From UHGV virus genome UHGV-0188647: a stretch of DNA of 32,659 nucleotides. The stretch is one strand, 5' to 3'. Each line of letters starts with the position of its first letter. Within the stretch, counting starts at the first letter, position 1. The translations under genes were made by a program, and so were the position numbers. Of this stretch, positions 14,860-32,659 are shown in pieces. This stretch comes from a virus. The notes under the pieces are model-generated. The model did not search any database. It was not told where the DNA came from and saw nothing but the letters and a program-made list of their open reading frames with translations.

Positions 14860-14937
14860 GAGCCGTGCTCCGTTAGAAAAAACTTACTGGAGCCTTATGG
14901 TTGCGGTGATGGGGGCAGTGAAACAATGCGCGGTATT

Positions 14938-14955: not shown

Positions 14956-15001
14956 AACCGCAGGCGGGGAAAGCCTTCATTCAAGGCTGTAGGTTTGTGC
15001 C

Positions 15002-16768
15002 ATGAACACCACACTGACACCCGCAGATCTCGATCCCCGTCGGCAGGCCATGCTGCTGTACTTTCAGGGATACCGCGTAGCCCGCATTGCTGAAATGCTG
15101 GGCGAGAAAGTTGCAACCGTTCACAGCTGGAAAAAACGCGACAAGTGGGGTGACTATGGGCCGCTGGATCAGATGCAGCTCACCACCGCCGCACGCTACT
15201 GCCAGCTCATTATGAAGGAGCACAAAGAAGGGAAAGATTTCAAAGAGATTGACCTGCTGGCGCGCCAGTCGGAGCGCCACGCGCGGATCGGCAAGTTTAA
15301 CAATGGCGGCAACGAATCCGACTTAAACCCTAACGTCGCCAACCGCAACAAAGGCCCGCGCCGTCAGCCGGAAAAGAATGTTTTCACCGATGAGCAGATT
15401 GAGAAGCTGGAAGAAATCTTCCATTCCTCCATGTTCAACTACCAGCGCCACTGGTGGGAAGCCGGAAAAACCAACCGCATCCGCAACCTGCTGAAGTCAC
15501 GCCAGATCGGCGCGACCTTTTACTTTGCCCGTGAAGCCCTGATTGACGCTCTGCTTACCGGACGTAACCAGATTTTTCTTTCCGCCAGCAAGGCACAGGC
15601 TCACGTCTTTAAGCAGTACATCATAGACTTCGCCAAAGAAGTCGAGGTGGAGCTGAAAGGCGATCCGATGGTGCTTCCTAACGGAGCCACGCTTTACTTC
15701 CTCGGCACCAATGCCCGCACGGCCCAGAGTTACCACGGCAACCTGTATCTGGATGAATATTTCTGGATACCGAAATTCCAGGAGCTGCGCAAAGTGGCTT
15801 CTGGTATGGCTATTCACAAAAAATGGCGACAAACCTATTTTTCCACGCCATCCAGCCTGACACACAGTGCTTATCCGTTCTGGTCCGGTGCGCTGTTCAA
15901 CCGTGGGCGCAATAAAGCCGATAAGGTGGACATCGACCTGTCCCACAGCAATCTGGCCCCCGGCCTGCTGTGCGCAGACGGGCAATACCGCCAGATAGTC
16001 ACCGTGGAAGATGCAGTGCGCGGCGGATGTAACCTTTTCGACCTCGATCAGTTGCGCATGGAGTACAGCCCGGACGAATACCAGAACCTGCTGATGTGCG
16101 AGTTTGTGGACGATCTCGCGTCCGTGTTCCCGCTCAGCGAGCTGCAGGCGTGCATGGTGGACAGTTGGGAAGTCTGGACCGACTTTCATGCACTGGCCCT
16201 GCGCCCGTTTGGCTGGCGCGAAGTGTGGATCGGTTATGACCCGGCAAAAGGTACGCAAAACGGCGACAGCGCCGGGTGCGTGGTGGTGGCACCGCCAGCC
16301 GTGCCGGGCGGTAAGTTCCGCATTCTTGAGCGTCACCAGTGGCGCGGGATGGACTTCCGCGCCCAGGCTAACGCCATCAAAAAACTGACTGAACAGTACA
16401 ACGTGACATACATCGGTATCGACTCAACCGGCGTCGGTCACGGGGTTTACGAGAACGTGAAAGCGTTTTTTCCTGCCGTCCGGGAGTTTGTCTACAACCC
16501 CAACGTTAAAAACGCCCTGGTACTCAAGGCCTACGACATTATTAGCCACCGCCGCCTGGAGTTTGACGCCGGGCACACCGACATAGCGCAGTCCTTTATG
16601 GCAATCCGTCGCGCCACCACTGCCAGCGGCAACCGCCCGACCTATGAGGCCAGCCGCAGCGAAGAAGCCAGCCACGCCGATCTGGCCTGGGCAACAATGC
16701 ACGCACTGTTTAACGAACCGCTGCAGGGCGAGTCCGCCAATACCAGCAATATTGTGGAGATTTTTTGA
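15002..16768 (+). CDS. P: terminase large (ATPase) subunit (P2 gpP-like)
   Basis: 588-aa ORF (P2 P is about 590 aa), divergent from O, followed by the portal gene with an ATGA overlap. Confidence 0.9.
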   Translation: MNTTLTPADLDPRRQAMLLYFQGYRVARIAEMLGEKVATVHSWKKRDKWGDYGPLDQMQLTTAARYCQLIMKEHKEGKDFKEIDLLARQSERHARIGKFNNGGNESDLNPNVANRNKGPRRQPEKNVFTDEQIEKLEEIFHSSMFNYQRHWWEAGKTNRIRNLLKSRQIGATFYFAREALIDALLTGRNQIFLSASKAQAHVFKQYIIDFAKEVEVELKGDPMVLPNGATLYFLGTNARTAQSYHGNLYLDEYFWIPKFQELRKVASGMAIHKKWRQTYFSTPSSLTHSAYPFWSGALFNRGRNKADKVDIDLSHSNLAPGLLCADGQYRQIVTVEDAVRGGCNLFDLDQLRMEYSPDEYQNLLMCEFVDDLASVFPLSELQACMVDSWEVWTDFHALALRPFGWREVWIGYDPAKGTQNGDSAGCVVVAPPAVPGGKFRILERHQWRGMDFRAQANAIKKLTEQYNVTYIGIDSTGVGHGVYENVKAFFPAVREFVYNPNVKNALVLKAYDIISHRRLEFDAGHTDIAQSFMAIRRATTASGNRPTYEASRSEEASHADLAWATMHALFNEPLQGESANTSNIVEIF

Positions 16769-17793
16769 TGGGAAAGAGTAAGAAAAACCGCGCTGCGGCG
16801 ACGAATCAGCTCAAGCATAAAAGCCAAACTTCAGCCGAAGCATTCAGCTTTGGCGATCCCGTTCCTGTTCTGGACCGCCGTGAACTGCTGGACTATGTGG
16901 AATGCGTACAGATGGACCGCTGGTATGAGCCGCCCGTCAGCTTTGACGGACTGGCACGAACCTTCCGCGCCGCCGTGCATCACAGCTCACCAATTGCGGT
17001 GAAATGCAACATTCTGACCAGTACCTACATCCCTCACCCGCTGCTCAGCCAGCAGGCTTTTTCACGTTTTGTGCAGGACTATCTGGTATTTGGTAACGCC
17101 TACCTGGAGAAACGCACGAACCGCTTCGGTGAAGTTATCGCCCTTGAGCCTGCTCTGGCAAAATACACCCGACGCGGGTTAGACCTGGATACCTACTGGT
17201 TTGTGCAATACGGTATGACAACCCAGCCGTATCAGTTCACGAAAGGCAGCATTTTTCATCTGATGGAACCGGACATCAACCAGGAGATCTACGGCCTGCC
17301 AGGTTATCTTTCTGCCATTCCATCAGCCCTGCTCAACGAGTCCGCCACGCTGTTCCGCCGCAAGTATTACATTAACGGCAGTCATGCAGGCTTCATCATG
17401 TACATGACCGATGCCGCGCAGAACCAGGAGGATGTGAACAACCTCCGCAATGCGATGAAAAGCGCCAAAGGCCCTGGCAACTTCCGCAACCTGTTTATGT
17501 ACTCGCCTAACGGCAAAAAGGACGGGCTTCAGATCATCCCGTTGTCAGAAGTCGCGGCGAAGGATGAGTTTCTGAGTATCAAAAATGTCAGCCGCGATGA
17601 CATGATGGCAGCGCATCGTGTGCCGCCGCAAATGATGGGGATTATGCCGAATAATGTTGGGGGGTTTGGGGATGTGGAGAAGGCAAGCCGTGTGTTTGTT
17701 CGTAACGAACTAATACCATTGCAAAAAAGATTGGATGAGTTAAATAATTGGTTAGACGATAAAATAATAACATTTAACACATACAATTTTTAA
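16765..17793 (+). CDS. Q: portal protein (P2 gpQ-like); last ~25 codons unusually AT-rich
   Basis: 342-aa ORF (P2 Q is about 344 aa) after the terminase gene, oriented toward cos; the C-terminal tail ...LDELNNWLDDKIITFNTYNF is encoded by AT-rich DNA unlike the rest of the gene. Confidence 0.85.
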   Translation: MMGKSKKNRAAATNQLKHKSQTSAEAFSFGDPVPVLDRRELLDYVECVQMDRWYEPPVSFDGLARTFRAAVHHSSPIAVKCNILTSTYIPHPLLSQQAFSRFVQDYLVFGNAYLEKRTNRFGEVIALEPALAKYTRRGLDLDTYWFVQYGMTTQPYQFTKGSIFHLMEPDINQEIYGLPGYLSAIPSALLNESATLFRRKYYINGSHAGFIMYMTDAAQNQEDVNNLRNAMKSAKGPGNFRNLFMYSPNGKKDGLQIIPLSEVAAKDEFLSIKNVSRDDMMAAHRVPPQMMGIMPNNVGGFGDVEKASRVFVRNELIPLQKRLDELNNWLDDKIITFNTYNF

Positions 17794-17798
17794 AGCAA

Positions 17799-17818
17799 GC
17801 CCTCAATCGAGGGCTTTT
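17799..17818. terminator. hairpin terminator between the convergent portal gene and cargo operon
   Basis: gccctc-aatc-gagggc stem-loop followed by tttt on the plus strand; A-rich on the other side. Confidence 0.5.
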
Positions 17819-17823
17819 GAAAA

Positions 17824-18345
17824 TCAGTTAATCAGTTTATTTAATGACTTAGACCACTTCTGTCCCAAATCATCAATATCAAAATCACCATCTCGCTGCT
17901 GCCATTTAAAAACTAAGGCTATAAGTTCACTCTTGAGGATTCTTTTATAATAATCCTTAGATTTTAATTGCTCAAGTATATGTTCACCAACCTCAGCAAG
18001 CTTTCTATGATTTAATTCTGACAGATCTCGATGCAAATGGTTAACTGATTTATACAAAGTATTTCCTTCAGTACGAGAAATATCAATACCTTTATCTTCA
18101 AACCATTGTGAATCAAGCCAAACCAAATCTATCGTAGCTGGCTCTGACATCGTGGTGGCAAGGGCAACAATAATTTTCTCTACCGATTCATCTTGAAAAT
18201 CGATAGAGTCAGAAACCCAAACTGACAAGGTGTTATTAGAGGTCCTTGTGCAACCTGTTATCGCGTCTGCGGATATATTGTCAGGTGCTCTACCTTTATT
18301 ACATTCCCATTTACTATGGGATATTTTACGCAATAAATATGTCAT
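17824..18345 (-). CDS. hypothetical protein, cargo operon gene 3 (173 aa)
   Basis: AT-rich ORF; its ATG overlaps the upstream gene's stop as TAATG (18343-18347); no family recognised; has an R-x6-H pair (RDLSELNH). Confidence 0.6.
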   Translation of the reverse strand: MTYLLRKISHSKWECNKGRAPDNISADAITGCTRTSNNTLSVWVSDSIDFQDESVEKIIVALATTMSEPATIDLVWLDSQWFEDKGIDISRTEGNTLYKSVNHLHRDLSELNHRKLAEVGEHILEQLKSKDYYKRILKSELIALVFKWQQRDGDFDIDDLGQKWSKSLNKLIN

Positions 18346-18992
18346 TATAGACTTCTCAAATATCCTATAACTGCTTCTTTATATTCTTCCACCCAATCAG
18401 CATCAAATTTCCTCATTCTTTCAAGGACTGGAATAAATGATTTTTCCCCCCAAGACTCAACTGCACGGATCGCTGCCTCAAATATAAGTTCATTCTCAAG
18501 AGAACAAACTCCCATAATCATAGCGTCAGCTTTATTACCTAACCATTCATATTCAATAGTCGATGCAAAATTAATGAAGTTCTTTACATGTTGATCATTC
18601 ATTCTGTACAATTGTACCCATGTCCTTTGAAAGGACTCTTGGAATAAATCCTGATTTTTATCATACAAGAACTCCATGTAAATCTGTGTCTTGCTTATCT
18701 CGCCTTCAATGTAATCTTCTGAACATGTTAACTCAATTAGTCTAGAGGTACATTTTGAAACCTGAATTTCAAAGTTCTGCTTAGTTGACGAACCTTGATT
18801 TATTGACTCAGTCTCTAATTGAAAGCCACCATTTGTTTTGCTATGTGACAGCTCATTTCTTTTAATATCAGCGTAAATGATATTGTTACCATCATAATAA
18901 TCAGAAAATGCACCTATTGAACTTACCCCATTTTTAAACTTAGGTAAGCCAAAAGGCTTTTCATCACTTATTATAAAACTATTCTTTACCAT
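18345..18992 (-). CDS. hypothetical protein, cargo operon gene 2 (215 aa)
   Basis: AT-rich ORF 9 bp after gene 1, with an AAGGTGA RBS; no family recognised. Confidence 0.6.
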   Translation of the reverse strand: MVKNSFIISDEKPFGLPKFKNGVSSIGAFSDYYDGNNIIYADIKRNELSHSKTNGGFQLETESINQGSSTKQNFEIQVSKCTSRLIELTCSEDYIEGEISKTQIYMEFLYDKNQDLFQESFQRTWVQLYRMNDQHVKNFINFASTIEYEWLGNKADAMIMGVCSLENELIFEAAIRAVESWGEKSFIPVLERMRKFDADWVEEYKEAVIGYLRSL

Positions 18993-19001
18993 AGCATCAC
19001 C

Positions 19002-19697
19002 TTACAGAGAAGTGTAGCGTTGTAAATTATCAATAGTTTTAAGATTGTCCTGACACAATAACTCTAGCACGCGGATATATTCATCCCAACCAAACCGCAT
19101 ATATCCATTTTGAGGAAGAGTATTAGTATCAGTTTCAAATAATACGCAATCACTTGGCATACCATTATTCAAAAATGGAGCTGAAATTTCAGCGCGTCTA
19201 ATTGTACTAATACTATTAATTTCTTCCTGATACTCTTCAATATTTTTCCTTACAGCTATACGATTGTCCCACTCAAATGGATTAACACCTTTATAGGTAA
19301 ACAAAGCATTGTAAAGCGAAGAGTAAACAGATTCATCCCCTTGATAGATACGTGAATTCAGAACAGCTATCCTATTTCCTTTTTTCATCGGAAATACGTT
19401 TTGTAGTTCCCTAGATATAGATAGAACCATTTCTGAAAACGCTTGAGGTTCCCCCCCCAAACCATTAAAAATGATTCCATGGCTAGGAAACTCGACTCTT
19501 ACTGTTTGATTGGTATCTACCATGATAAGAATTTGCTTTTTCTCACCAGTGATGGCATTAATCTCCTGACCAAAAGTAGGTACAAATCCAAATTTTCCAA
19601 TCTTATCAAGCATAGATCCAATAGTTAGTGTATTTGGAACTATATCATTATTATTTGTGAAAAAATTAATCTGATGCGTCTGTTCAATCAATTTCAT
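19002..19697 (-). CDS. hypothetical protein, cargo operon gene 1 (231 aa)
   Basis: AT-rich ORF with an AAGGAG RBS 5 nt upstream of the ATG; first gene downstream of the cos-like site; no family recognised. Confidence 0.6.
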   Translation of the reverse strand: MKLIEQTHQINFFTNNNDIVPNTLTIGSMLDKIGKFGFVPTFGQEINAITGEKKQILIMVDTNQTVRVEFPSHGIIFNGLGGEPQAFSEMVLSISRELQNVFPMKKGNRIAVLNSRIYQGDESVYSSLYNALFTYKGVNPFEWDNRIAVRKNIEEYQEEINSISTIRRAEISAPFLNNGMPSDCVLFETDTNTLPQNGYMRFGWDEYIRVLELLCQDNLKTIDNLQRYTSL

Positions 19698-19844
19698 AAT
19701 TGCTCCTTGTTCAAAAAAACACCACCGCTCAGTGGTTCCTCTCTGTTAAAATATTCTAGTTCAACTTACTCTCAATATGAATCAAAGCTTAACCCTGGTT
19801 GGTAATTAAGTCACACTTTTCTTCATAGTAAGGGATTTCGCGCG

Positions 19845-19863
19845 CTCGTATCCCCGCCACGCC
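19845..19863 (-). other. cos-like cohesive-end site (186/P2 type)
   Basis: The minus strand reads ggcgtggcggggatacgag, matching 15 of 19 positions of the 186 cohesive end GGCGTGGCGGGGAAAGCAT as I recall it; it lies between the right-end operon terminator and the portal side, in the expected orientation. Confidence 0.4.
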
Positions 19864-19904
19864 TGCCCGCTTTATGTAGTGGTTTTCATGCACCTGCATG
19901 AGCT

Positions 19905-19932
19905 ACGCAAAAGCCCGCCAGTTCTGGCGGGC
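19905..19932 (-). terminator. rho-independent terminator after the SOS-controlled two-gene operon
   Basis: 7-bp GC stem (gcccgcc...ggcgggc) followed by a TTTT tract on the minus strand. Confidence 0.5.
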
Positions 19933-20067
19933 CTTAGCAAAAACGATCCTCAAACGATCATGCGATCTCATGCGGCATAGACATGCACTACAGAGCTAAC
20001 GCCTCGCAAGGGCTCGTTGTTCAACCTTGCTGACGCCAGAAGCAAGTTCAGACGCCAGCAACGTTTC

Positions 20068-20301
20068 TTAATGCAGCCAGCTGTCGTCTTCCCACACCTT
20101 CTGCATAATTTTCATCACTTGTTTTCTTTCTTCGTCCAGTTGCAGTCCGGTTAGTTCCACACCGTTAGAGCTACCTTTGCGAATGCGAATTACCGTTTTG
20201 GGATACAGGGGGCGCAGATTGCGGTAAAGCTCGGATTCAAGGGCGTCCAGGGTAGACTGGCTAATCTTCTGCTCTTTATCGATCATTATTTCAATGCGCA
20301 T
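20068..20301 (-). CDS. DinI-family protein (Tum/DinI-like SOS effector)
   Basis: MRIEIMIDKEQKISQSTLDALESELYRNLRPLYPKTVIRIRKGSSNGVELTGLQLDEERKQVMKIMQKVWEDDSWLH resembles E. coli DinI as I recall it; start taken at the internal ATG 20301 with a GAGGTGA RBS. Confidence 0.7.
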   Translation of the reverse strand: MRIEIMIDKEQKISQSTLDALESELYRNLRPLYPKTVIRIRKGSSNGVELTGLQLDEERKQVMKIMQKVWEDDSWLH

Positions 20302-20311
20302 AAAAGTCACC

Positions 20312-20500
20312 TCAGCTGATGACATCCATTGAGCGGTTGTATTCGTGGGTTCTGATTTTTGCCATGAGTTCATCAGTCAATTCAGAAACCCACTGCAGAG
20401 CCAGCCCCTTCTCTTCATCACTACACTCACTAGCCGCTACAAGCTTAAGAAAAAAATCAATGCGCTGGAGCTTCAAAGACTCCAAAAAATAGTCCTGCAT
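20312..20500 (-). CDS. small hypothetical protein, first gene of the LexA-controlled operon (62 aa)
   Basis: Start taken at ATG 20500-20498, preceded by AGGAGG; the longer ORF-track start (20602) would put the LexA box inside the coding region. Confidence 0.5.
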   Translation of the reverse strand: MQDYFLESLKLQRIDFFLKLVAASECSDEEKGLALQWVSELTDELMAKIRTHEYNRSMDVIS

Positions 20501-20541
20501 CTTTCCTCCTATGACACCACACGCAATACTGTATGTATAAC

Positions 20542-20561
20542 CACTGTTTATATTTACAGTA
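20542..20561 (-). promoter_or_regulatory. LexA (SOS) box
   Basis: cactgtttatatttacagta contains CTGT-N8-ACAG with an AT-rich centre, about 45 bp upstream of the 62-aa gene start. Confidence 0.7.
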
Positions 20562-20653
20562 TATAATAATCTTACTGATGTAAAACGTTTTTTTACATTC
20601 ATCAGCCTGATATGCCTGGTATTATTAAGAGCACGAATTGTTAACCCGCGTAA

Positions 20654-23068
20654 TTAATACAGGTTCCGCCACTGATCATCTTCCTGCAAACGCTGGCTCC
20701 GATAGAAGATACGCAGGCCTGCTCCTGACGGAATACTGCCTCCGCGAAGGAGTAAATCGACCTCTTTCTCGCTGCCATCAAATCCTCTGGACTTCAGCTC
20801 ATACACGAGCTGCAGTCGCTGATGGTCTGTAATTCGCTGTTTGTAGTCTTTACGCCGTTTCGGTTTCACCAGGCATAACCTTGCTGCCAGTTCCCGGCGC
20901 TCTTTTTTGCTCATACTGTGCAGGTAATCGTGCAACTCCTTGTCATCCATGCTGGTAATGTCCGTTCTGGGGTCCCCATCAGCTGATTTATCTTTCTCCT
21001 GTTGGTTCAAATTTTCAGCAAGGGGACAGTTATTGCCACGAGTCCAAGGGGCGCAAGCGCCCTGGTCGGCTGCCGCCTCCTGAACGTCAACGGCCTTACG
21101 AACCATTTTCCACTTCACTGCATGAGTGCAGATCTTGCCCTCTGCAATGGGTGACCAGATGCCATAAATACGAATGCCGTGATCGCCATAGGCGGTCGGC
21201 TCTTCGTTGATTTCATAAGCGGTTCTGATGAGGTGATATTTGCGGGGAACCAGTACGCCGCCCTGCTTCATGATGTAGGTGGCAAAACAACCAGCATCAG
21301 CAGCAGCCAGAATGGCATCAAGACGCGGGTTATCCAGTACCGGCGCACCTGCTTTTTTGTCACCCTGTTGCCTTGCCGCCTGACCAGCCAGCAAGCGAAG
21401 TTCACGGTAAGCCTGACGTCCCGGAATACCAAAGAAGCGGAATTGCTGTACACGATGCAGAGACGCCCAGGCATTAACGTATTCAGCGTTATCACGCAGG
21501 GATTTACCCGTTTCCTTGCTGATCTCGCCAGCCAGACCACGCCCGTCAATGTTCTTACTGATGTATTTCGCGATGTAGCTTGTCGGCGTTCCTTTGCGCG
21601 GGTTTATCAGCTCAGATTTAAAGCGTGGACCAGTGTTATTACCCAGTTCCTCGCGGTCTTCACGGATGGCAAACTTACGCAACAATGCAGTAATGGCGCG
21701 GCGGTCTTTTTTGCGCATGAAACACAACAGGTGCCAGTGAACTGTACCGTCATGATGCGGCTCAGCCACCCGCACGCCATACCAGCGCAACCCGGCTTTG
21801 TGCATCGCCTTACGAAATGCAGCAAACATGCCGACCAGATAATCGCTGCTTTGTCTTACCGTCGCATTTGTCCAGGTTGGGTTTGGTCTGCCGTTATTGA
21901 GCGTGGAATGGAAACGTGACGGACAGGTAATGGTGTAGAAAACGGCGCAGTCACCGCGCATTTCCGCGATAAGCTCCAGACCTTTAACACAGGCCATCAT
22001 CTCATTGCGGCGGTGCGCCGGGTTGCTGCTGCTGGCGTTTACCACGTCTTCCATATCCAGCGTGTCGCCCTCTTCGTTCACCAGTTCATGAGAACGGAAA
22101 AACTCCAGTGACTTGCGGCGCTGCTCACGTTTATGAATCACGGCTTCATAGCTGACATAGGGAGATGCTTTTTTGCTGACCAGGCAGACAGCACGCAACT
22201 GCTCTTCCCGCCATTCGCAACGCATTTTCCATAATTTCCGGTACCACCAGTCGGCACACAACATACGCGCCAGCGAACCCGGAATGAGTTCATAGGGCAC
22301 GGGTTGACGGCGGTTTCTTTTCCGACGGAGTTGCTCAAACGCAGGCGGAATAACATCCAGACGCAGGGTTTCCGCTGCCACCTTTTCCCATGTTTTGCGG
22401 ATTTCTTCTGGCTTAACGTCATCGGTGGCGTACAAATCACCACAAGCGGCATCAAGACACATGCTCATATGCGCAGCGACAAGAGTAGACAGGCGTTTCA
22501 CCTGATCCTGACTCATTTCAGGCAGAATCAGCAGGCCGTCCAGCCCTACATGGCTTGCCATAAAACGAAAAGATGCAGATAGCTGGCTGTCGCGTACATG
22601 CTCCAGTCGCTCCAGACATGGCTTAATCGTCTCACGCAAATAGCGGGAATAAGCCTTTGGCCTGCCCAGGCTGCTGAAGTATTCAATACGTTGCATCAGC
22701 GGCTTGCTGATATGGGAAGGCTGGGCATTGACGTCCGCCAGAATGACCATATCTGGATTAAAACGCTGCTGCTCATGCGCCAGCTTTGCCCGACTAATGA
22801 GCTTATCCTGCTCCATTTCGCGCTGGACAGGATCACGGGATTCATTAAAGAAATAACGCTCCCAGACCTGATCACTCAGTGCCTCGCGGCGCAGGTGTTC
22901 CTGCTCGTTATCGGCAGCGTACAGAGCGATCAGGTTTGAAAGCGCAGAAACCGGCGCAACTTCCGCCGGGTCCAGATAAGGGTTAATGGCCTTTTTCGGG
23001 CTGTTCCATGAGAACGCTGCGGCAGCCTCGTTAAAGCCGCAGCAGTTGTTCATATCGGCATGGCTCAT
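20654..23068 (-). CDS. A: replication initiation endonuclease (P2 gpA-like, rolling-circle initiator)
   Basis: 804-aa ORF with an HxH-type motif (TVHWHLL) and a tyrosine pair motif [10 protein letters not shown] (Y-x-x-K-Y); its position matches P2/186 gene A. Confidence 0.85.
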
Positions 23069-23922
23069 GCACGTACTCCGTACACGGCAGAACTATCCAC
23101 GCCACGCGAATAATCAAATCCCACCCAGCAGCGCGGCCCGGAAACAGCAATGATTTCTGTTGCTGATTTACCCTCGCCAGCTGCCACACCGATGCTGCGT
23201 TTTACCTTGATATAGTGGTGAGTAAAATTGCGATACAGCGAACGGATCAGGGATGTGTCACTGTTAGAAACAATGACCGGATGTCCTTCTGATGACCGAT
23301 GTTCAAGAACGGATGCCAGGTGATACTGGTCATCTTCAGTGAAACCATCAGTGTGATAGCCGGAAAACGTACCGTCATACGGCGGATCGCAATACACCAC
23401 ATCCCCCGCCTTCAACATCGCCAGCGTTTCATCAAAGCTGGCGCAGATAAACGTTGCTCGCTGGGCTTTTTCTGCAAATGCGCGAATTTCTTTTTCAGGG
23501 AAATACGGATTTTTATAATTACCGTAGGGAATGTTGAAATGCCCGCTCTTGTTATAGCGACATAAACCACGGTAACCGTGACGATTGAGATACAGGAAAT
23601 ATACCGCTTTCATGAAATCAGTAATTTCAGTTGAGTAATTAAACTCCTGCCTTATGTTGTAATAAGCCACCTCCCTGTTTGCGATCTCAAATAAAACTCT
23701 GGCGCGAGATATAAACGATTCACAATCAGCAGCAACCTTTTTATAGAGGTTGATTAAATCAGGATTAATATCCGCAACAAGATAGCTGGGGTACTCCGTC
23801 TCCATCATCACTGCACAGGAACCCGCGAAAGGTTCAACCAGTCGCGGGCCAGCAGGAAGATGCTTTTTCAGTTCGGACATAATGGCGGTTTTATTTCCCG
23901 CCCATTTCAGGATGGTGCTCAT
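23065..23922 (-). CDS. dam: DNA adenine methyltransferase (Dam family, N6-adenine)
   Basis: LKWAGNK...FAGSCAV (AdoMet-binding) and a DPPY catalytic motif; start at ATG 23922 with a GGAGGTG RBS; the stop overlaps the A start. Confidence 0.85.
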
Positions 23923-24146
23923 ACAGCACCTCCGTTGTAATGTTTGCCTTTCAGCTCTGCGATTTCCTGACAGGTAATGCAAAGCTGCACACCCGGAATG
24001 GCACGGCGGCGTGCTGGCGGAATTGGCGCTTCACACTCAATGCAAAGCACGCGGGACACGCCCGGCGTTTTGGCACGGGCAGCACGGATATGACGCTGGC
24101 GTTCTTCTTCAACGCGCTGCTGTACGAGATCCATTGCATCAGCCAT
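23919..24146 (-). CDS. TraR/DksA-family C4 zinc-finger protein
   Basis: CIEC-x17-CITC cysteine pattern in a 75-aa basic protein. Confidence 0.6.
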   Translation of the reverse strand: MADAMDLVQQRVEEERQRHIRAARAKTPGVSRVLCIECEAPIPPARRRAIPGVQLCITCQEIAELKGKHYNGGAV

Positions 24147-24385
24147 TAGTGGATCTCCTGCGCTTCGTTCTGGATTGCTTCAGCTGCCACACGCAGCAGT
24201 TCAGCCGCTTCAACGTGGTTTAGCTGGCGGGATGTGATATGGCACGCAAGGCTATCAAGGCGAGCTGCCATTGCTTCAGCTCTTGCCCGACGTTCTTCCA
24301 GACGAGCCTCTGTCAGTAAAATATTAAGTCCTGCGTCATCCGGTCCGGTTTTAGTCGAGAGGGTTTCAATATTACGCATAATCAA
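24146..24385 (-). CDS. hypothetical early-region protein (79 aa)
   Basis: ORF co-directional with and tightly packed in the early operon; no family recognised. Confidence 0.35.
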   Translation of the reverse strand: MIMRNIETLSTKTGPDDAGLNILLTEARLEERRARAEAMAARLDSLACHITSRQLNHVEAAELLRVAAEAIQNEAQEIH

Positions 24386-24446
24386 TTCTCCTGAATTTAG
24401 ATAAAGGAATACCCGGCGGGTTTACGCCATGAATTTCATTAATTGG

Positions 24447-24788
24447 TTAATTCGGCATGGCTAGCCGTCTGGGAAATAAGCTCACCACTGCACGAAGATG
24501 ATTCATTACTTTAATCAACTCCCGCTTTTCGTCAGTGGTCAGCTCATTAATGCTGATGCTATGACGTTCAGCTGGAATTTTTGCTATAAAGAATATAGCA
24601 GCCAGTGCTCGTTTATTTCGTTCATAATTAACATCCCGTGGATCACGTATATCTTTAATAAACCGCTCAAGCTCTGACTCAATATTCAGGCCAAATACTT
24701 TCGCCCTTAATTCCGCAATATGATTAAGTCCATTCAGGCGTTCACCTGGGCTTAATGGAACAGTCGCCGCAGCGCCTTCAATAGCCAT
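24447..24788 (-). CDS. hypothetical early-region protein (113 aa)
   Basis: ORF in the early operon downstream of the cII-like gene; no family recognised. Confidence 0.4.
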   Translation of the reverse strand: MAIEGAAATVPLSPGERLNGLNHIAELRAKVFGLNIESELERFIKDIRDPRDVNYERNKRALAAIFFIAKIPAERHSISINELTTDEKRELIKVMNHLRAVVSLFPRRLAMPN

Positions 24789-24982
24789 TTGTTCCCCCGT
24801 TTTTTCGTTGATAGTTCTGCCAACAATTCATCTTGCGAACGGCACGGATGCCAGCGTTTACCATCCTCACCCATGATCCAGCCGTGACCGTAGTGCATTG
24901 CCGGACTTTGTTTTACCAGCAGCGATGCAAATGATGGTTCTTTCGTCAGCATAAGCACCTCACAGCAAACCGAATGAAGCAC
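24752..24982 (-). CDS. hypothetical small protein (start uncertain)
   Basis: Short ORF overlapping its neighbours; may start at an internal Met. Confidence 0.25.
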   Translation of the reverse strand: MLHSVCCEVLMLTKEPSFASLLVKQSPAMHYGHGWIMGEDGKRWHPCRSQDELLAELSTKKRGNKWLLKALRRLFH

Positions 24983-25469
24983 CGAGGCCAGTTACAGTAT
25001 CAACTGCACTTGCCATCGCAGGATTAACCTGTAAACGGGCCTGCAATGAAACAGCAGCTAACGCCATCAGTCGTGTAACAGAGTTAATGCTGCTGATAGC
25101 ATCACGACGACCTGCACTGGTTTTTACATCGCCAGATACCGCACCTGCAGCAACACGCCCGATCTCTGCGGTTGCACTCATGACGTAATGTGGCAGTTTC
25201 TCTTTTGCCACCTCATTAATCGGTACACATGGCAGGCAGTGAATCTGTGCCAGAAAACCGTCTACCAGCGTTGAATCTTCCGTCAGATCGGTAAGTAGCC
25301 AGATATCTGACGCATTGAGCTGATGCGGTTGATCTGGGTTGAGTTTGTTTCGCAGAGTCTGGACATTCATACCTGCACGTTCTGCCAGCTTCGCCATATT
25401 GTGACGAAGTGCAAAAGCTCTACAGGCTTCATCAAAATGCGGGTGTTTGGAAATCTTATAATCAAACAT
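24960..25469 (-). CDS. cII: CII-like transcriptional regulator (186 CII-like)
   Basis: 169 aa, the size of 186 CII as I recall it; second gene of the lytic operon after the apl-like gene. Confidence 0.6.
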   Translation of the reverse strand: MFDYKISKHPHFDEACRAFALRHNMAKLAERAGMNVQTLRNKLNPDQPHQLNASDIWLLTDLTEDSTLVDGFLAQIHCLPCVPINEVAKEKLPHYVMSATAEIGRVAAGAVSGDVKTSAGRRDAISSINSVTRLMALAAVSLQARLQVNPAMASAVDTVTGLGASFGLL

Positions 25470-25501
25470 GCTACCCCCTTAGAAAGTTCTCATAATTGAA
25501 C

Positions 25502-25744
25502 TTACTTACCAACAATGACGCGGAAGTTGGAATGACCGAGGGATTCACGGACCTGATCGGTTTTGTACATTAAATAACGCAGGCTTACGCGGCCTTTGTT
25601 TTTTTCTTTCTTGACCATGTATTTAGCAAGCTGACCATGGTGAATTTTTTGATACACGGAGCCGCGGGAGATACCTTCCCATTCCGCGAACTCTGCAGGC
25701 GTAGCCATCTCTTTTGGTACACGAATTGAAATATCAGTGCTCAT
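25502..25744 (-). CDS. apl: Apl/Cox-like excisionase and repressor of the lysogenic promoter
   Basis: 80-aa basic protein, first gene transcribed divergently from the repressor gene, in the Apl/Cox position. Confidence 0.55.
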   Translation of the reverse strand: MSTDISIRVPKEMATPAEFAEWEGISRGSVYQKIHHGQLAKYMVKKEKNKGRVSLRYLMYKTDQVRESLGHSNFRVIVGK

Positions 25745-25802
25745 AGTGCAGTATCTCCCGATTAAGGTTTGGTTTACGTCGTTTTATCTCGTTTTACCTG
25801 AT

Positions 25803-25847
25803 TCAATATTTGATACATCGAGATACTACGATCCAATATTTGATACG
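25803..25847. promoter_or_regulatory. switch region with two direct repeats (candidate repressor operators)
   Basis: caatatttgatac occurs twice (25804-25816 and 25834-25846), 30 bp apart, in the 119-bp apl-cI intergenic region. Confidence 0.4.
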
Positions 25848-25863
25848 TCAACAGGATTAAAAA

Positions 25864-26496
25864 ATGATACAGGTAAAGGTTGGAGAGAATACAGGGGGAA
25901 GAGAGGCTATCCATAGACTAATGGCAGCCTATGATTTCAAGTCCAGACAGCAACTTTGCGATCACTTAGGCGCATCAAAAAGCACCATGGCAAACAGATA
26001 CTTAAGAGATAGTTTTCCTGCAGAGTGGGTGATTCAGTGCGCCTTGGAAACAGGAGTTTCTTTACTGTGGCTAACCACCGGACAGGGAGAGCCAGGTCCA
26101 AACATTGAACCTAAAAAAAATATCAATTCCGTGAACTCCAGCAAGGTTGTACCTCTTTCTGAACTAGTATCTCCTGAAATTGACAAGGCGACTCTCAACG
26201 GTGGTTTATTGGTCGATGCTGGAAAAGCAATCATTGATAGCAGCATACTCCCCTCAGACTCAAGCAACCTACTGCTGGTGACTACTTCTGGTGATTCTTA
26301 TTTAATAGATCGCAACCAAACACCACCAGTAAATGGTATGTGGTTAGTCGATATCGACGGGATAAAAAGCATCGTTAAATTGACTCGACTCCCGGGAAAC
26401 AAATTAGTAGTGCATCAGGATGATTCATCGTTTGAGTGCGGTCTGGATGACATTGAGGTAGTAGGCCGCGCACTGAAAATCATTAAGAGCCTTTGA
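25864..26496 (+). CDS. cI: immunity repressor (186 CI-like)
   Basis: 210-aa protein, divergent from the apl-like gene and immediately upstream of int (TGATATG junction). Confidence 0.7.
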   Translation: MIQVKVGENTGGREAIHRLMAAYDFKSRQQLCDHLGASKSTMANRYLRDSFPAEWVIQCALETGVSLLWLTTGQGEPGPNIEPKKNINSVNSSKVVPLSELVSPEIDKATLNGGLLVDAGKAIIDSSILPSDSSNLLLVTTSGDSYLIDRNQTPPVNGMWLVDIDGIKSIVKLTRLPGNKLVVHQDDSSFECGLDDIEVVGRALKIIKSL

Positions 26497-26497
26497 T

Positions 26498-27520
26498 ATG
26501 ACCATCAGAAAACAGCCGAACGGAAAATGGTTGTGTGAGTGCTATCCCAATGGACGCAATGGCAAGCGCGTGCGTAAGCAATTTGCCACGAAAGGCGAAG
26601 CCATTGCGTTTGAAAGCTTCACAATGGAAGAAGTGAATAAAAAACCGTGGTTGGGTGAAAAGGATGATCGGCGACGCCTATCAGAATTAATTGAGCTTTG
26701 GTATTCCCTATATGGTCAAACACTCGCAGACCCCAAGCGCCTCATGGCGAAACTTAGAATTATCTGTAATGGTCTAGGCGATCCCATCGCCTCAGAACTG
26801 ACAGCTGGTGACTTTACAAAATACCGCGAAGCACGGTTAAAAGGTGAAATACGAAATGAAGATGGCACGCTTATGTCGCCCGTTAAGCCCCGCACGGTAA
26901 ACCTTGAACAGCGCAATCTATCATCTGTGTTCGGTACATTAAAAAAACTAGGACACTGGTCAGCACCAAACCCGCTGGCAGGACTTCCGACCTTCAAAAT
27001 TGCCGAAGGTGAGCTGGCTTTTCTTTCCACGGACGAAATCAAGCGCCTGTTGGCGGCATGTGCTGAATCTCAAAGCCCTAGCTTACTAATGATTGCAAAA
27101 ATATGCCTAGCTACTGGCGCACGGTGGAGTGAAGCCGAAAATCTGCAGGGCCATCAAATATCGAAATACCGAATTACTTATACAAAAACAAAAGGCAAGA
27201 AAAACCGTACTGTGCCGATATCTCAGGATCTGTATGATGAACTCCCCAAAAACAGAGGGAAGCTATTCACTCCATGTAGAAAAGCCTTTGAGCGGGCGGT
27301 TAAACGCGCGGGTATTGAGCTGCCAGAAGGCCAATGCACCCATGTACTGCGCCACACATTCGCCAGTCACTTCATGATGAATGGCGGAAACATACTCGTT
27401 TTGAGGGATATTTTAGGGCATTCAGATATTAAGATGACTATGGTTTATGCCCATTTTTCACCAGAGCATCTTGAAGATGCAGTAACTAAAAACCCACTAT
27501 TTAATTTAAATATTATATGA
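26498..27520 (+). CDS. int: tyrosine integrase (P2/186 family)
   Basis: C-terminal catalytic region HVLRHTFASH...LGHSDIKMTMVYAH (R, H-x-x-R and Y signature); 340 aa. Confidence 0.9.
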   Translation: MTIRKQPNGKWLCECYPNGRNGKRVRKQFATKGEAIAFESFTMEEVNKKPWLGEKDDRRRLSELIELWYSLYGQTLADPKRLMAKLRIICNGLGDPIASELTAGDFTKYREARLKGEIRNEDGTLMSPVKPRTVNLEQRNLSSVFGTLKKLGHWSAPNPLAGLPTFKIAEGELAFLSTDEIKRLLAACAESQSPSLLMIAKICLATGARWSEAENLQGHQISKYRITYTKTKGKKNRTVPISQDLYDELPKNRGKLFTPCRKAFERAVKRAGIELPEGQCTHVLRHTFASHFMMNGGNILVLRDILGHSDIKMTMVYAHFSPEHLEDAVTKNPLFNLNII

Positions 27521-28578
27521 ACATTAATACTAGCTTTACTGGAATTATTGTGTATATTTTGGCAATTATTCTTTTTGCGTTTGTATCAATATATAAAAAG
27601 TGGTACATTCTCGATAAAAGAAATTTATTTCAACAGAAATTATTTTGGATTTCAATTGCAGTACCACTGCTGTCATTCATTTATTTTGGAGCATTTGCAT
27701 GGTTTGGTAAAATACCTGTTCTTTCTGCTCACGGATATGCCAGATTCTATGAGATAAGCAAATTCCCATTATTGATACTCGCAAGTTCTGTACCATTAGC
27801 TTCCATAGTAAATAACATTCACAGAACGATACAAACCGAAGCACAAATTAATTCATCTGAAATCAAAAATGCAATCGATAGACATTTTGCTCATGAGAAA
27901 AATTTCGTAGATAAAATTAAAGAAATATCAAGCTTTACGATGCAAAGCTTTGTAGATGACGCATCAAAATATTATAATTACAATGATAGCAACAAAATTA
28001 AAATACTAACAACTCATGAAATTAAAATCTCAAACCCATACTTATTATATTCCAATATATATACAGAATCGTCAATGGATATCACATCCAATTATTCACC
28101 AGACGAGAACTTTAAAAAAAGCATATTGTCAATCCTAGATACCATTAATAATAACTTATCAAAAGATAAGGTTACACCCCATTCAAATGCAGAAGATTAC
28201 CTTACCAGATTAAATACAATTTCATATAACATAGCTAAATTATTAGATACTTTATGCGTAGATTGTATCTCGATAGCCTATATAGAGTTAAAAATCAACG
28301 GCACTAAAATAAGAACGTTCACCCCTACAGAATCAATGTTAGCCGAATCACTTGAGGCTGCATTTTATCTATCTAAAAAGATATTAAAACTAGCTTACGG
28401 ATTTCAGCTTCAAAACTACAGTAATATATATAACTACTTGTACATTGGTGAAATTAAATTTGATACAGAACAATTTTCTAAATTTTTGCAACCATTCTAT
28501 TCTCCTGAATGGTCAGCATACGTAATGGAGAAACCGGTGACAGTTGATGATGGCGGCACTTTGGCGGCAGAGGATTAA
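27517..28578 (+). CDS. hypothetical membrane protein (353 aa), AT-rich moron translationally coupled to int
   Basis: ATGA start/stop overlap with int; 2-3 N-terminal transmembrane helices followed by about 250 aa of soluble N/K/I/Y-rich sequence; no family recognised. Confidence 0.6.
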   Translation: MNINTSFTGIIVYILAIILFAFVSIYKKWYILDKRNLFQQKLFWISIAVPLLSFIYFGAFAWFGKIPVLSAHGYARFYEISKFPLLILASSVPLASIVNNIHRTIQTEAQINSSEIKNAIDRHFAHEKNFVDKIKEISSFTMQSFVDDASKYYNYNDSNKIKILTTHEIKISNPYLLYSNIYTESSMDITSNYSPDENFKKSILSILDTINNNLSKDKVTPHSNAEDYLTRLNTISYNIAKLLDTLCVDCISIAYIELKINGTKIRTFTPTESMLAESLEAAFYLSKKILKLAYGFQLQNYSNIYNYLYIGEIKFDTEQFSKFLQPFYSPEWSAYVMEKPVTVDDGGTLAAED

Positions 28579-28663
28579 AAATAGGTAAAACAAGCAAATA
28601 CACAATAATACTAACACACTAATTTTAAAGATAAATACATGTTTTTATTATAGTAAAAATGGT

Positions 28664-28708
28664 ATGTAGGAATTTCGGACGCGGGTTCAACTCCCGCCAG
28701 CTCCACCA
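28664..28708 (+). other. ssrA: 3'-terminal 45 nt of ssrA (tmRNA), prophage att junction
   Basis: atgtaggaatttcggacgcgggttcaactcccgccagctccacca matches the 3' end of E. coli tmRNA including the CCA, as I recall it; the sequence upstream is AT-rich and unrelated. Confidence 0.75.
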
Positions 28709-28754
28709 AAATTCTCCATCGGTGATTACCAGAGTCATCCGATGAAGTCCTAAG

Positions 28755-28788
28755 AGCCCGCACGGCGCAAGCCCTGCGGGCTTTTTTG
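28755..28788 (+). terminator. rho-independent terminator (native ssrA terminator-like)
   Basis: Long GC hairpin agcccgca...tgcgggct with a GCAA tetraloop, followed by TTTTTT. Confidence 0.55.
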
Positions 28789-28913
28789 TGCCCTCAATTT
28801 GTCCCGCGAAGTCCGAAGAAAACTAATTAAATCCGATCCTTTTAGGCACCTTGTTAGGCACCTCATAAAGCTTTATTGTTTTTTGAGGTGCCTAAAACTA
28901 TGGAAACCCGGCA

Positions 28914-30293: not shown

Positions 30294-32597
30294 CTATTTT
30301 AAATCAGCCTTTGCGGCTCGAATATCTGCGTTTTTTGCTGAGTATTCCCATTCGTCAGCGATTCTAAATAGCATTGCAGAAGTACGGACGCAGTGGGGCA
30401 TTGAATTTGCCCATTCTCGGTACTGCTCAGCTAATATCCTTTCTTGGTTTCCACCTTCGTAACGCATACGAGCAAATACCCCCCTTTTATTGTACCTACC
30501 AATTTGTATACCTTGCTCTAACTCATCAGAAGATAATATTTCAATGATGTGCCGAATTGCTTCATGTGGCCAGGAATTATCTACTGAGCTATTAGGGGCA
30601 TGTGCCAGAATTTTTCCTATTACATGATCAGTGATTTCTTGGCGATGATGCAATTTTGCTAAATGGCGTACATTCTCACACCAATCTTCAAGTTTATCTT
30701 GATCAATTTCATTGTCTATCTGCCCTGGTAGTATTCGTAATTTTTCAAGTAATCTGTATATAGAAGTAGCTCTTTTAACTTCCAACTCCGATGGTTCTGT
30801 TTGTTCATCTTCGTCACTACGATATACAATACATATTGCTTCTATAAAAACCTCTGGCTTTTTCATCATTAGACGATGCAGGATAAGTGGCTCATCGCTA
30901 TCCGGAAAACAAGGCAAGTAGGTCATTTCTTTAAATGCCAAATCTGTTTCAGAAACATCGTTACGTTGTTTGAGTTCATCAAAAACTTTTTTTACATAGT
31001 ACGATAGCATTGTATCAAATTGGATATCCTGGCTATTTATTTCTTTAACGACTATATCTAGAAGATATAAAAGTGTTGTAGATGGAATCTCAGAAAGGCG
31101 TTGATTTGCTGATATAATAGCAGCAAGACCCCGGCCCCTTTCTATATATTTATCCATAAGAACAAATAAATCCGAAGTTTTACCCATCATTGCAATGGGT
31201 TGTTTTTGCAACCAATATTTTTCGTTGATGTTATCTTCAAACCCTTCAATAATGCTCCATATCTCTTGTGAGTCTCTTAACGATGCTAAGATTTTCCCAG
31301 CCCTATCAGGGGTAATTTTAAACTGTTTAAAATACACTTTTATTTTATTAAGCCATTCAGCACCAAAGCATTCAACACCATATTGCATTAACAACCCACA
31401 AACTTCATCAATATTTTTTTTGTTGTTAATAAGCATTACAAACAAATCATTTAATTTTTCTTCATCCAACGAGAGTGCTGATATATGCCTTGCTGCAATA
31501 AAAACATTATTAACTTGTTGAAAAAGGTCTTTCACCCCAGACAAACCTAAAGTAAAGTATATTTCCCTAAGTTTTTCACTTCGCATTTCTTCGACAGAAG
31601 AAAAAATTCCGCCAGCATTTTCAATTGACTCTTCAATATCAGAATCCCAATCATTGAAAATCCATAAACTGGCTCTAACCATGTCAATTGGTTTATAATT
31701 ATCAAGTATTTTCGCTATTTTTTCCATAGACTCAAATTTAAATGCCCAGTTCGCATCTGAATATTTTTTATGGCGAGAATACTCATGACGCAAAGCCTCC
31801 CATACGATGAACTGATCCTCTTCAGTTTGTTGAGAAAGGCAAAGTTCAAGATGAGAAAGTGTTTCATCTATTGCATTCTCAGGGAATGAGCTTAAATGAG
31901 AGATTAGGATTTCCCATCTTGTTGGGAGTATACCTGCAAGTTTAATTGCTTCTTGGATAATAAAGATTTGCCCCTCCCAAACAACGCCCCACGTTAGTTT
32001 TTCTACATCTTTATCCGACTCTCTGAACTTCATTTTTTGGTTTTGATCAGAGGTATCATGGGAGCGAGGAAGGAGATTTTGTAACAAACTCCACCCAATA
32101 CTAGGAACAATAGTGATAATTTTTTTTATAATTGCATTTCTAACTTTTACTGGTGCCCATGTATTAGGAGACCATGCCAGAAAAATGGTTCTTAAACTAT
32201 TAAGAGGGCGATCTGAGTAAGTTCCTCCGGGATCTATTACAGCGAGTTTTGCAAGACAGATTGCAGCGCGTAATAGATATGTTTGTTCCCAAGCCAAGGC
32301 TTCCAATGCCCATTTTAATCCATGATAATGACTTCGAGGAGTTAACAGCCCTTTATCTTCATTGAATATTGGAGCAATCATTTCCCCATTGCCCTTAAGC
32401 AATTGCTCAAGGGCATCAAGGAAAGGGCCAGGGGCAGCTTCTGCCAGCAGCGGAAGTTGATCTCGCAAACTAACAAATAGTCGATGGTCGTTAGCAAGTC
32501 CCGGAATACTCTGAACTATTTTGTTAACAAAATCTTGGGGTGTCATACCAGTAACCCGGAATTCGGCCTGTTCATGTAATATGATCTTACCCAGCAA
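30294..32597 (-). CDS. large hypothetical protein (767 aa), AT-rich island cargo
   Basis: Long uninterrupted AT-rich ORF convergent with the P4-type integrase; no Walker A or other motif recognised; the start may be the Met at 32597 or the internal Met at residue 17. Confidence 0.6.
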   Translation of the reverse strand: MLGKIILHEQAEFRVTGMTPQDFVNKIVQSIPGLANDHRLFVSLRDQLPLLAEAAPGPFLDALEQLLKGNGEMIAPIFNEDKGLLTPRSHYHGLKWALEALAWEQTYLLRAAICLAKLAVIDPGGTYSDRPLNSLRTIFLAWSPNTWAPVKVRNAIIKKIITIVPSIGWSLLQNLLPRSHDTSDQNQKMKFRESDKDVEKLTWGVVWEGQIFIIQEAIKLAGILPTRWEILISHLSSFPENAIDETLSHLELCLSQQTEEDQFIVWEALRHEYSRHKKYSDANWAFKFESMEKIAKILDNYKPIDMVRASLWIFNDWDSDIEESIENAGGIFSSVEEMRSEKLREIYFTLGLSGVKDLFQQVNNVFIAARHISALSLDEEKLNDLFVMLINNKKNIDEVCGLLMQYGVECFGAEWLNKIKVYFKQFKITPDRAGKILASLRDSQEIWSIIEGFEDNINEKYWLQKQPIAMMGKTSDLFVLMDKYIERGRGLAAIISANQRLSEIPSTTLLYLLDIVVKEINSQDIQFDTMLSYYVKKVFDELKQRNDVSETDLAFKEMTYLPCFPDSDEPLILHRLMMKKPEVFIEAICIVYRSDEDEQTEPSELEVKRATSIYRLLEKLRILPGQIDNEIDQDKLEDWCENVRHLAKLHHRQEITDHVIGKILAHAPNSSVDNSWPHEAIRHIIEILSSDELEQGIQIGRYNKRGVFARMRYEGGNQERILAEQYREWANSMPHCVRTSAMLFRIADEWEYSAKNADIRAAKADLK

Positions 32598-32659
32598 TAG
32601 TGGACACGCGGCTAAGTGAGTAAACTCTCAGTCAGAGGTGACTCACATGACAAAAACAG

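Follow-up and report, generated by a model that had tools for sequence, protein, structure and literature searches.

A displaced ssrA fragment between a Fels-2-type prophage and an IntA-type integrase island: tandem elements at the tmRNA gene

Phage integration into the tmRNA gene ssrA, displaced fragments of this gene, and tandem arrays of elements at it have been documented since about 2003, the year in which Williams' 'Traffic at the tmRNA gene' reportedly described such arrays. The tmRNA gene is the most enriched target in the Islander/TIGER work, in which 125 tandem arrays of at least two islands have been catalogued (PMC4383910). Integration into a tRNA or tmRNA gene has a recognizable signature, consisting of a regenerated gene at one end of the element and a displaced 3' fragment at the other; in a tandem array, each element then adds an integrase and a displaced 3' fragment to the regenerated gene (PMC4383910).

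Among the phages with this habit, Fels-2 and SopEPhi of Salmonella (Felsduovirus) integrate into ssrA (PMC3448106), as does the E. coli phage Cartapus (Peduoviridae). A second kind of ssrA element is CP4-57 of E. coli K-12, which carries the integrase IntA and was historically named a P4-like cryptic prophage (Kirby et al. 1994, as cited in PMC10107115). CP4-57 is annotated from 15 nt before the end of ssrA and retains a degenerate distal copy of the ssrA end (ACTCCGCCAGCCCACCA); its IntA-mediated excision damages the acceptor stem of ssrA, inactivates tmRNA, and switches the ribosome-rescue pathway of the cell (PMC10107115). P4-like satellites, in turn, are defined by seven core genes, those for Int, Psu, Delta, Sid, AlpA, Ash/epsilon, and Alpha, and neither the integrase nor AlpA alone is a specific marker of the group (PMC13586616).

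The locus considered here lies within a stretch of 32,659 nt (the whole of the DNA that was analysed, called the window below), whose features are collected in Table 1. Positions 28551-28913 are almost certainly a composite junction, formed by recombination where two elements stand in tandem at the tmRNA gene, and in comparison with the tRNA/tmRNA arrays already catalogued there is nothing different in kind: it is one more instance. The preliminary description had placed an att junction at 28579-28913, the 335-nt gap that separates the stop of the ORF at 27517-28578 from the start of the ORF at 28914-30155. A junction does lie in this gap, but the conserved arm-type repeats that belong to it are found further left, at 28551-28569.

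Table 1. Features of the prophage, the junction, and the island, in the coordinates of the window
Feature	Coordinates	Strand	Basis or remark
P2/186-like (Peduoviridae) prophage	1..28663	.	Cut by the left edge of the window inside the tape-measure gene
Prophage cos-like 19-mer, GGCGTGGCGGGGATACGAG	19845..19863	-	13/19 positions match the P2/P4 cos, GGCGAGGCGGGGAAAGCAC
186-type CI repressor gene	25864..26496	+	Pfam Phage_CI_repr, Phage_CI_C
Fels-2/186-type tyrosine integrase, ssrA-specific	26498..27520	+	Pfam Int_N, Phage_integrase
AT-rich cargo gene, 353 aa, predicted membrane protein	27517..28578	+	Between int and the attP arm; 29% GC
Two direct TGGCGGCA repeats, candidate phage-integrase arm-type sites of the P arm	28551..28569 (28551-58 and 28562-69)	+	Repeat search
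AT-rich spacer of the attP P arm	28570..28663	+	Counterpart in the attP arms of Cartapus, SEN8, and Fels-2 (alignment); no relation to the ssrA body
att core, 47 nt	28664..28710	+	Last 45 nt of ssrA plus AA; displaced tmRNA 3' fragment
Putative target of the island integrase, AACTCCCGCCAGCTCCACCA	28689..28708	+	Inferred from position; matches the P4 core, the last 20 nt of a tRNA gene
Island-supplied ssrA trailer	28711..28787	+	Hairpin 28717-28744; intrinsic terminator 28752-28787
Three TTAGGCACC(T) repeats, candidate arm-type sites of the island integrase	28842..28895 (28842-51 and 28854-63 direct; 28886-95 inverted)	+	Repeat search
IntA-type (P4-subfamily) tyrosine integrase, 413 aa	28914..30155	+	Appears intact
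C-terminal ~60% of a ~1,258-aa protein, function unknown, cut by IS3	30294..32546	-	phrog_18693 positions 488-1255 of 1258
IS3 end at the window edge	32582..32659	+	78 nt, 100% identical to both GE3 IS3 copies, direct and inverted

The centre of the junction is a piece of the tmRNA gene. Alignment with the K-12 sequence bears out the first reading of 28664-28708 (ATGTAGGAATTTCGGACGCGGGTTCAACTCCCGCCAGCTCCACCA) as the 3'-terminal 45 nt of E. coli ssrA, whose CCA is included and ends at 28708. The 45-nt block has one copy in the window where shuffled sequences would contain none, and it is not part of a larger gene: ARAGORN found no complete tmRNA or tRNA gene in the window, an Rfam search of the window gave no tmRNA at the gathering score, and in a permissive Rfam search the tmRNA model aligned only through its 3' tRNA-like part, at 34 bits against a cut-off of 47. 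A promoter-like match directed toward the fragment (28624-28651) does not stand out from chance, with 2 found against 1.5 expected in shuffles.

The preliminary description took these 45 nt to be the att core, and the ssrA part of that assignment is exact; the block held in common with the phage attP, however, is 47 nt long (28664-28710). These 47 nt are identical to the annotated attP core of Fels-2 (33670-33693 joined to 1-23, that is, 24 + 23 nt), alignment gives the same core in the attP of Cartapus and of SEN8, and in phage genomes of the Fels-2 family the 47 nt lie between int and ogr. Both edges of the block are sharply defined, one by a megablast comparison with 5,426 complete E. coli genomes and the other by matches to phage genomes. 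Uninterrupted ssrA-integrase junctions (GE3, O104:H4, and others) match the window at 100% identity from exactly 28664, and phage genome matches stop exactly at 28710. In GE3 the match continues as far as 32659, the last position of the window, over 3,996 nt with zero mismatches, so that 28664-32659 is 100% identical to DNA found directly after an intact ssrA; in many other E. coli genomes as well, the sequence that runs rightward from 28664 directly follows intact ssrA. The composite itself also recurs, since six of the complete E. coli genomes match the window from about 28548 and 32 of the 5,426 cover at least 80% of the 253-nt junction of phage arm, core, and island. The displaced fragment is the attR of the phage and the attL of the island at once. 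Since CP4-57 is annotated as starting 15 nt inside the end of ssrA, the target of an IntA-type integrase would be nested within the 47-nt core of the phage; in P4, whose annotated core is GAGTCCGGCCTTCGGCACCA, the target is likewise the last ~20 nt of a tRNA-like gene.

Left of the core, the preliminary description had reported AT-rich phage-side DNA unrelated to ssrA. This DNA is AT-rich and is not ssrA, but it can be named more specifically as an arm of a phage attP: a P arm with two TGGCGGCA repeats, an AT-rich spacer, and the 47-nt block are conserved with Cartapus, SEN8, and Fels-2. The repeats, which overlap the 3' end of the ORF at 27517-28578, are kept in Cartapus, SEN8, Fels-2, and JL05, where two further copies are present on the P' arm. 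TGGCGGCA is the reverse complement of tgccGCCActt, the published 186-type arm-site consensus of P2-like phages (PMC3448106), and by analogy the repeats in the window would be bound by the phage integrase.

The integrase gene upstream of this arm is an orthologue of those of the ssrA phages. Its product shares 96.7% identity with the RE2010 and Cartapus enzymes and 92.3% with Fels-2 Int, and it contains an N-terminal W-x-x-E-x-Y pattern as well as the catalytic HxxR and Y residues. In comparison with Fels-2, SopEPhi, and Cartapus as a group, the window has the same 47-nt core, an integrase of 92-97% identity, the same TGGCGGCA repeats in the P arm, and the same order of cI, int, and att; the arrangement in which ogr and D lie beside the regenerated ssrA and int lies beside the displaced fragment (PMC3448106) would likewise be shared. 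The window differs from Fels-2 and SEN8 in what stands between int, which ends 1.1 kb before the core, and the arm sites. A 1,062-nt cargo gene, the only gene in this interval, is absent in Fels-2 and SEN8, which have none there, while in Cartapus and JL05 other genes occupy the position. The last ~30 nt of the cargo gene run into the arm-type sites. The protein of 353 aa has no match in Pfam, PADLOC, or NCBIfam; it matches phrog_17460 (PHROGs), a family of unknown function, and has 81 homologues, all of them hypothetical proteins and every species-named one from Enterobacterales. An AlphaFold model of it is confident (pLDDT 82.6), and a Foldseek search of the PDB with this model gave no match with E<=0.001.

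The remainder of the prophage is of a different and more widespread type. Its genes encode tail, baseplate, lysis, capsid, terminase, and portal proteins, GpA for replication, Dam, CII, Fil, Apl, CI, and Int; this content is supported by the gene and Pfam tables of two 100%-identical loci (L016 and L017) and by the annotation of JL05. The P2/186-like gene set is present, with the GpQ-L operon, GpA, the CI/Apl/CII switch, and a cos-like site. The last of these was located by a blastn-short search of the window with the P4/P2 cos junction, for which the P2 cosL annotation was consulted; a pattern search of the window for the P2/P4 cos with up to 3 mismatches gave no match. P2-like prophages in 710 E. 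coli genomes align to 87-91% of positions 1-24000, with 95-97% identity. Such structural genes also occur with other integration modules, as in a prophage at ybjL, and an exact-protein look-up showed that the tube protein is common to P2-like prophages at other sites, ybjL among them; the same look-up with the tail-fibre ORF found no record. The prophage therefore combines a Fels-2-type integration module with structural genes of the common E. coli P2-like type, and in the latter respect it differs from the Fels-2 group.

The left end of the prophage lies outside the window, and the architecture of attL is known from one relative, the complete genome of JL05. There the left end reads smpB, intact ssrA, the P' arm, a small reverse-transcriptase cargo, ogr, D, U, and the tape measure; the right end reads cI, int, cargo, the 47-nt fragment, the same IntA-type island integrase, and the island. 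The attL and attR repeats of JL05 are the identical 47 nt. In the phage attP, the P' arm and ogr come after the core (TAAATCAAGGGGTTACG…), and this arm carries its own intrinsic terminator (AAGGGGTTACGTGAAAGCGTAGCCCCTTTTTCTT) and then two more TGGCGGCA repeats. At the far end of the prophage in the window, intact ssrA and then a P' arm containing …CCACCAAATAAATCAAGGGGTTACG… would be expected beyond ogr; in the reversed sense of the window's + strand, this P' arm would read GTGGCGGCAAAATGGCG … AAGGGGCTACGCTTTCACGTAACCCCTTGATTTATTTGG and would adjoin an intact 363-nt ssrA and smpB. The Fels-2 attP core, the integrase, and both ends of JL05 together support the earlier proposal that the prophage integrated into the 3' end of ssrA and displaced the fragment.

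The proposal that a second ssrA-targeting element stands in tandem with the prophage has held as well, since an island with an IntA-type integrase follows the fragment. The boundary of this island explains a feature that had been described as an ssrA-terminator-like hairpin. A hairpin with a T-run does lie at 28752-28787; the trailer as a whole has a fold z of -4.3, and the terminator was found by terminator scan, by folding, and as an inverted repeat. However, each type of island examined (that of the window, that of L013, and the satellite of L014, GCA_958315865.1) has its own trailer hairpin directly after CCAAA, with a similar terminator, and genomes free of an island continue after CCAAA with …CCACCAATCATGATTGG, the sequence that K-12 has on the right of CP4-57. 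Because the sequence after CCAAA is element-specific, the 'ssrA terminator' at 28752-28787 is island DNA, which each island type brings with it. In K-12 CP4-57, the trailer and terminator after ssrA are identical to those of the window for ~105 nt.

Downstream of the trailer, the TTAGGCACC(T) repeats lie just upstream of the start codon of the island integrase, which itself is 206 nt after the CCA. Their layout has the geometry of the annotated arm repeats of the P4 attP, where arm repeats flank the int start codon, and the same arrangement of two direct repeats plus one inverted repeat precedes the int start codon in K-12 CP4-57. The motif, in contrast, varies with the integrase: it is TTAGGCACC here, TAGGCCCA in K-12, GGTATACG in L014, and GGGACCC in L013. 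This is the pattern that would be expected of arm-type sites that co-evolve with their integrase, and the layout shared with P4 suggests that the TTAGGCACC repeats are bound by the island integrase. The enzyme itself was correctly recognized as a P4-type integrase from the start. It has the P4-subfamily domains Arm-DNA-bind_3, Phage_int_M, and Phage_integrase (Pfam), matches NCBIfam PRK09692 with 931 bits (cut-off 434), and is an orthologue of the IntA of K-12 CP4-57, to which it is equal in length and 85% identical over 413 aa; the columns of the catalytic R, K, HxxR, H, and Y residues are invariant in an alignment.

The window covers the first 3.9 kb of the island, and the cargo of this part is an IS3-disrupted gene for a ~1,258-aa protein, whereas K-12 CP4-57 has yfjH and alpA. 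The product of 30294-32546 is annotated in GE3 as a 750-aa hypothetical protein, and in that genome the missing N-terminal part (phrog_18693 positions 65-489) lies beyond the IS3. Over 17517-32659 the window is matched at 100% identity by a metagenomic contig (L017). In GE3, JL05, and L017, the island ends in IS3 copies adjoining a truncated ypjA, and no distal ssrA-like repeat or ancestral flank of the island was found in these three; this distal end, deleted in the relatives of the window island, is retained in K-12. Given the lack of a distal repeat or ancestral flank in relatives, together with the IS3 damage, the island is a remnant that has decayed and is probably immobile. A further difference from K-12 is that the island of the window adjoins the displaced fragment and not the functional ssrA.

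Taken together, these comparisons strongly support the following course of events. The ssrA gene would already have held an older element at its last ~20 nt, namely an island with an IntA integrase of the CP4-57/P4 subfamily; within 28711-28895, the TTAGGCACC arm repeats as well as the trailer hairpin with its terminator belong to that island. A Fels-2-type P2/186-like temperate phage would then have entered by recombination between its attP and the ssrA 3' end. In this attP, a 47-nt copy of the gene's 3' end stands between the P arm, which has the TGGCGGCA arm sites, and the P' arm, which has a terminator of its own. By this recombination, the full ssrA would have been rebuilt at the far (ogr/D/tail) end of the prophage, outside the window, where it would end in phage-supplied sequence and use a phage-supplied terminator, and the last 45 nt of the original ssrA would have been pushed ~35 kb downstream to 28664-28708, beside the int end of the phage. 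We infer that the island came first and the phage second. The displaced fragment contains both cores, so that it might in principle have served either element as a secondary attB. The same phage (99.5-100% identity, with an identical cargo protein) is found at ssrA in at least 4 different downstream contexts: in some genomes no island follows it, and in others it is followed by one of two other island types, by a true P4-like satellite, or by the island of the window. The presence of a near-identical phage in differing contexts, and of an IS-ridden island that is found phage-free at 100% identity, points to recent independent lysogenisations by an active phage atop older, variable islands, and the phage may well still be mobile.

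Besides this stacking of two elements at one gene, other accounts of the junction were weighed. It is unlikely, although less so than the accounts that follow, that insertion of the prophage rewired the ribosome-rescue switch known from CP4-57. Since the left att of the island is a dead ssrA fragment, the phage would then insulate the functional ssrA from excision of the island; alternatively, phage and island would leave as a single unit when IntA acts on the intact ssrA copy. Relatives, however, apparently no longer have the distal att site, which would render such recombination by IntA moot. In a weaker variant of the same idea, the island would be the relic of an ssrA-targeting P4-like satellite that was once serviced by this phage family.

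The preliminary description went further and found it suggestive that a P2-like helper phage should adjoin a P4-family element. That the two form a functional helper-satellite pair, in which a P4-like satellite depends on the adjoining P2-like prophage and is mobilised by it, is very improbable. The island does have an integrase of the P4 subfamily, with the same domain set and architecture as that of P4 and P4-like satellites and with a P4-like layout of arm repeats, and its K-12 counterpart has been called P4-like (Kirby et al. 1994, cited in PMC10107115); yet the integrase is only 34% identical to P4 Int, and an integrase or AlpA by itself is unspecific for satellites (PMC13586616). In tblastn searches with all P4 proteins, Int was the sole match in the window, and the whole GE3 island added only a homologue of AlpA/Vis (Pfam 2.8e-21 for AlpA). 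Neither in the window, with its 3.9 kb of the island, nor in the whole GE3 island was there a tblastn match at E<=1e-3 to alpha, epsilon/ash, sid, delta, or psu, and no Psu, Ogr_Delta, Phage_ASH, or primase Pfam domain was found in the ORFs of the GE3 island. The same domains are listed for the satellite of L014, which served as a positive control. Likewise, searches allowing up to 3 mismatches found neither the P2/P4 cos nor the cos variant of the prophage in GE3 or in the part of the window that belongs to the island. In addition, the gene beside the island int is broken by IS3, and the island is without a distal repeat and ancestral flank in the related genomes examined. On its gene content, membership of the island in the P4-like satellites is rejected, a class assignment made with only 3.9 kb of the island in the window.

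In the L014 genome the same phage, at 99.8% identity, is followed directly by a genuine P4-like satellite at ssrA, which contains int, HamAB, delta, psu, sid, alpA, ash, and alpha, and whose integrase is 58% identical to that of the window island; no cos was found within the 10 kb of this satellite that are available, a stretch that is uninformative on this point. Hence ssrA-targeting P4-like satellites do come to lie beside this phage, and the idea of a helper and its satellite, which does not apply to the island of the window, is a reasonable one in general. The simplest reason for such adjacency is that both integrases target the same gene, which accounts for a shared location rather than demonstrating dependence.

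Two technical readings have hardly any probability left. A chimeric contig, joining the phage end to ssrA-downstream DNA through the 47-nt repeat, might be suspected because the junction crosses a repeat present at least twice in the genome and because the window is bounded, in the manner of many draft contigs, by a conserved phage gene on one side and an IS3 copy on the other, but 47 nt is far below sequencing read length, 32 complete E. coli genomes cover the junction to the extent given above, and misassembly is excluded by the identical junction in independent assemblies (GCA_005396305.1, GCA_958315865.1, and JGI 3300029032) and by the junction with a close phage relative in the complete genome of JL05. 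Equally, the 47-nt block might be the attP of a free or episomal phage with the downstream genes as its cargo, given its presence between int and ogr in phage genomes of the Fels-2 family, but a free phage genome is excluded because the core here leads, through ATTCTCCATCGG…, not into a P' arm or ogr but into chromosomal island DNA, 4 kb of which is 100% identical to the chromosome beside intact ssrA in phage-free E. coli.

The composite junction of prophage and island is therefore an ordinary, already-known arrangement and not a phage-satellite partnership, since the attP of Fels-2 and SopEPhi, the IntA module of CP4-57, P4-style repeats, and arrays at the tmRNA gene have all been described before. 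Its value for annotation is that it gives the exact right boundary of the prophage, at 28710, together with the left boundary of the island, and that it identifies the integration module of the phage as Fels-2-type despite structural genes of the E. coli P2-like kind. It also shows that what appears to be the ssrA terminator is mobile-element DNA, and indicates that in this lysogen the tmRNA would be terminated by phage sequence. The locus thereby adds to the known cases in which mobile elements have stacked up at the tmRNA gene.

The structural and replication modules of the prophage (window positions 1-24000) are 95-97% identical to those of P2-like prophages at other sites (loci L018-L028 from other genomes), such as the one adjoining ybjL in strain N61. 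Because these modules are common to prophages inserted elsewhere, the comparison argues that the ssrA-specific cI-int-att module is a swapped cassette, an instance of mosaicism.

Features of the prophage, the island and their relatives
Feature	Location	Strand	Position
Cargo gene, 353 aa, 29% GC	window 27517-28578	+	between phage int and attP arm sites
Three AT-rich genes (173, 215, 231 aa; 35% GC)	window 17824-19697	-	portal gene to cos
Reverse-transcriptase-domain gene, JL05 relative of the prophage	L003 16671-17586		attL side
P4-like satellite	L014 11377-21062 (GCA_958315865.1)		after prophage, at ssrA fragment
IS3-split gene adjoining island integrase	window 30294-32659; L006 2068-6895		

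The gene that overlaps the int stop codon by 4 nt, and whose other flank is formed by the attP arm sites, encodes a 353-aa protein for which the prediction (AF2, pLDDT 82.6) gives roughly three transmembrane helices at the N-terminus and a helical/beta cytosolic domain. This protein has no matches in Pfam, PADLOC or NCBIfam, and a PDB search for a fold match came up empty; all 81 of its homologues are annotated as hypothetical, and those with a species name all belong to the Enterobacterales. The content of the int-att slot differs among phages of this family. Cartapus carries a gene for a RES-domain protein there and the relative in E. coli JL05 a gene for a 408-aa protein, whereas in Fels-2 and SEN8 the slot lacks any cargo gene. 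A minor int-att hotspot has been reported (PMC13586616), and the 353-aa gene within it is a candidate for an anti-phage or exclusion function. In JL05 a gene with a reverse-transcriptase domain lies between ogr and the regenerated ssrA; it marks a second cargo slot, beside the other att arm, and possibly represents retron-type defence.

The classical P2 GpA-GpQ defence hotspot is occupied by the three AT-rich genes, which match only function-unknown families in PHROGs and nothing in PADLOC, Pfam or NCBIfam. At this position two otherwise near-identical phages (L012 and L015) have instead a SEFIR/TIR-domain gene. The three genes may constitute an uncharacterised defence system.

On the island side, the gene next to the integrase retains the coding sequence for ~750 aa at the C-terminus of a protein of ~1,258 aa, from the function-unknown family phrog_18693. 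The gene is split by an IS3 insertion, in whose terminus the window ends; in strain GE3 the N-terminal 432 aa are located across the IS3. The ssrA 3' end and island terminator (28699-28787) give a weak partial match (32 bits; cut-off 376) to IsrM, an sRNA of a Salmonella island (Rfam). The trailer and terminator of the second island type at ssrA (L013) are nearly identical to the 3' end of the IsrM consensus, which suggests that IsrM originated from an ssrA-island junction.

In GCA_958315865.1, a prophage 99.8% identical to that of the window is followed by the ssrA fragment and then by a complete-looking P4-like satellite, whose int-psu hotspot holds a Hachiman (HamAB) system. The locus is a natural tandem of a helper-type phage and a satellite at ssrA.
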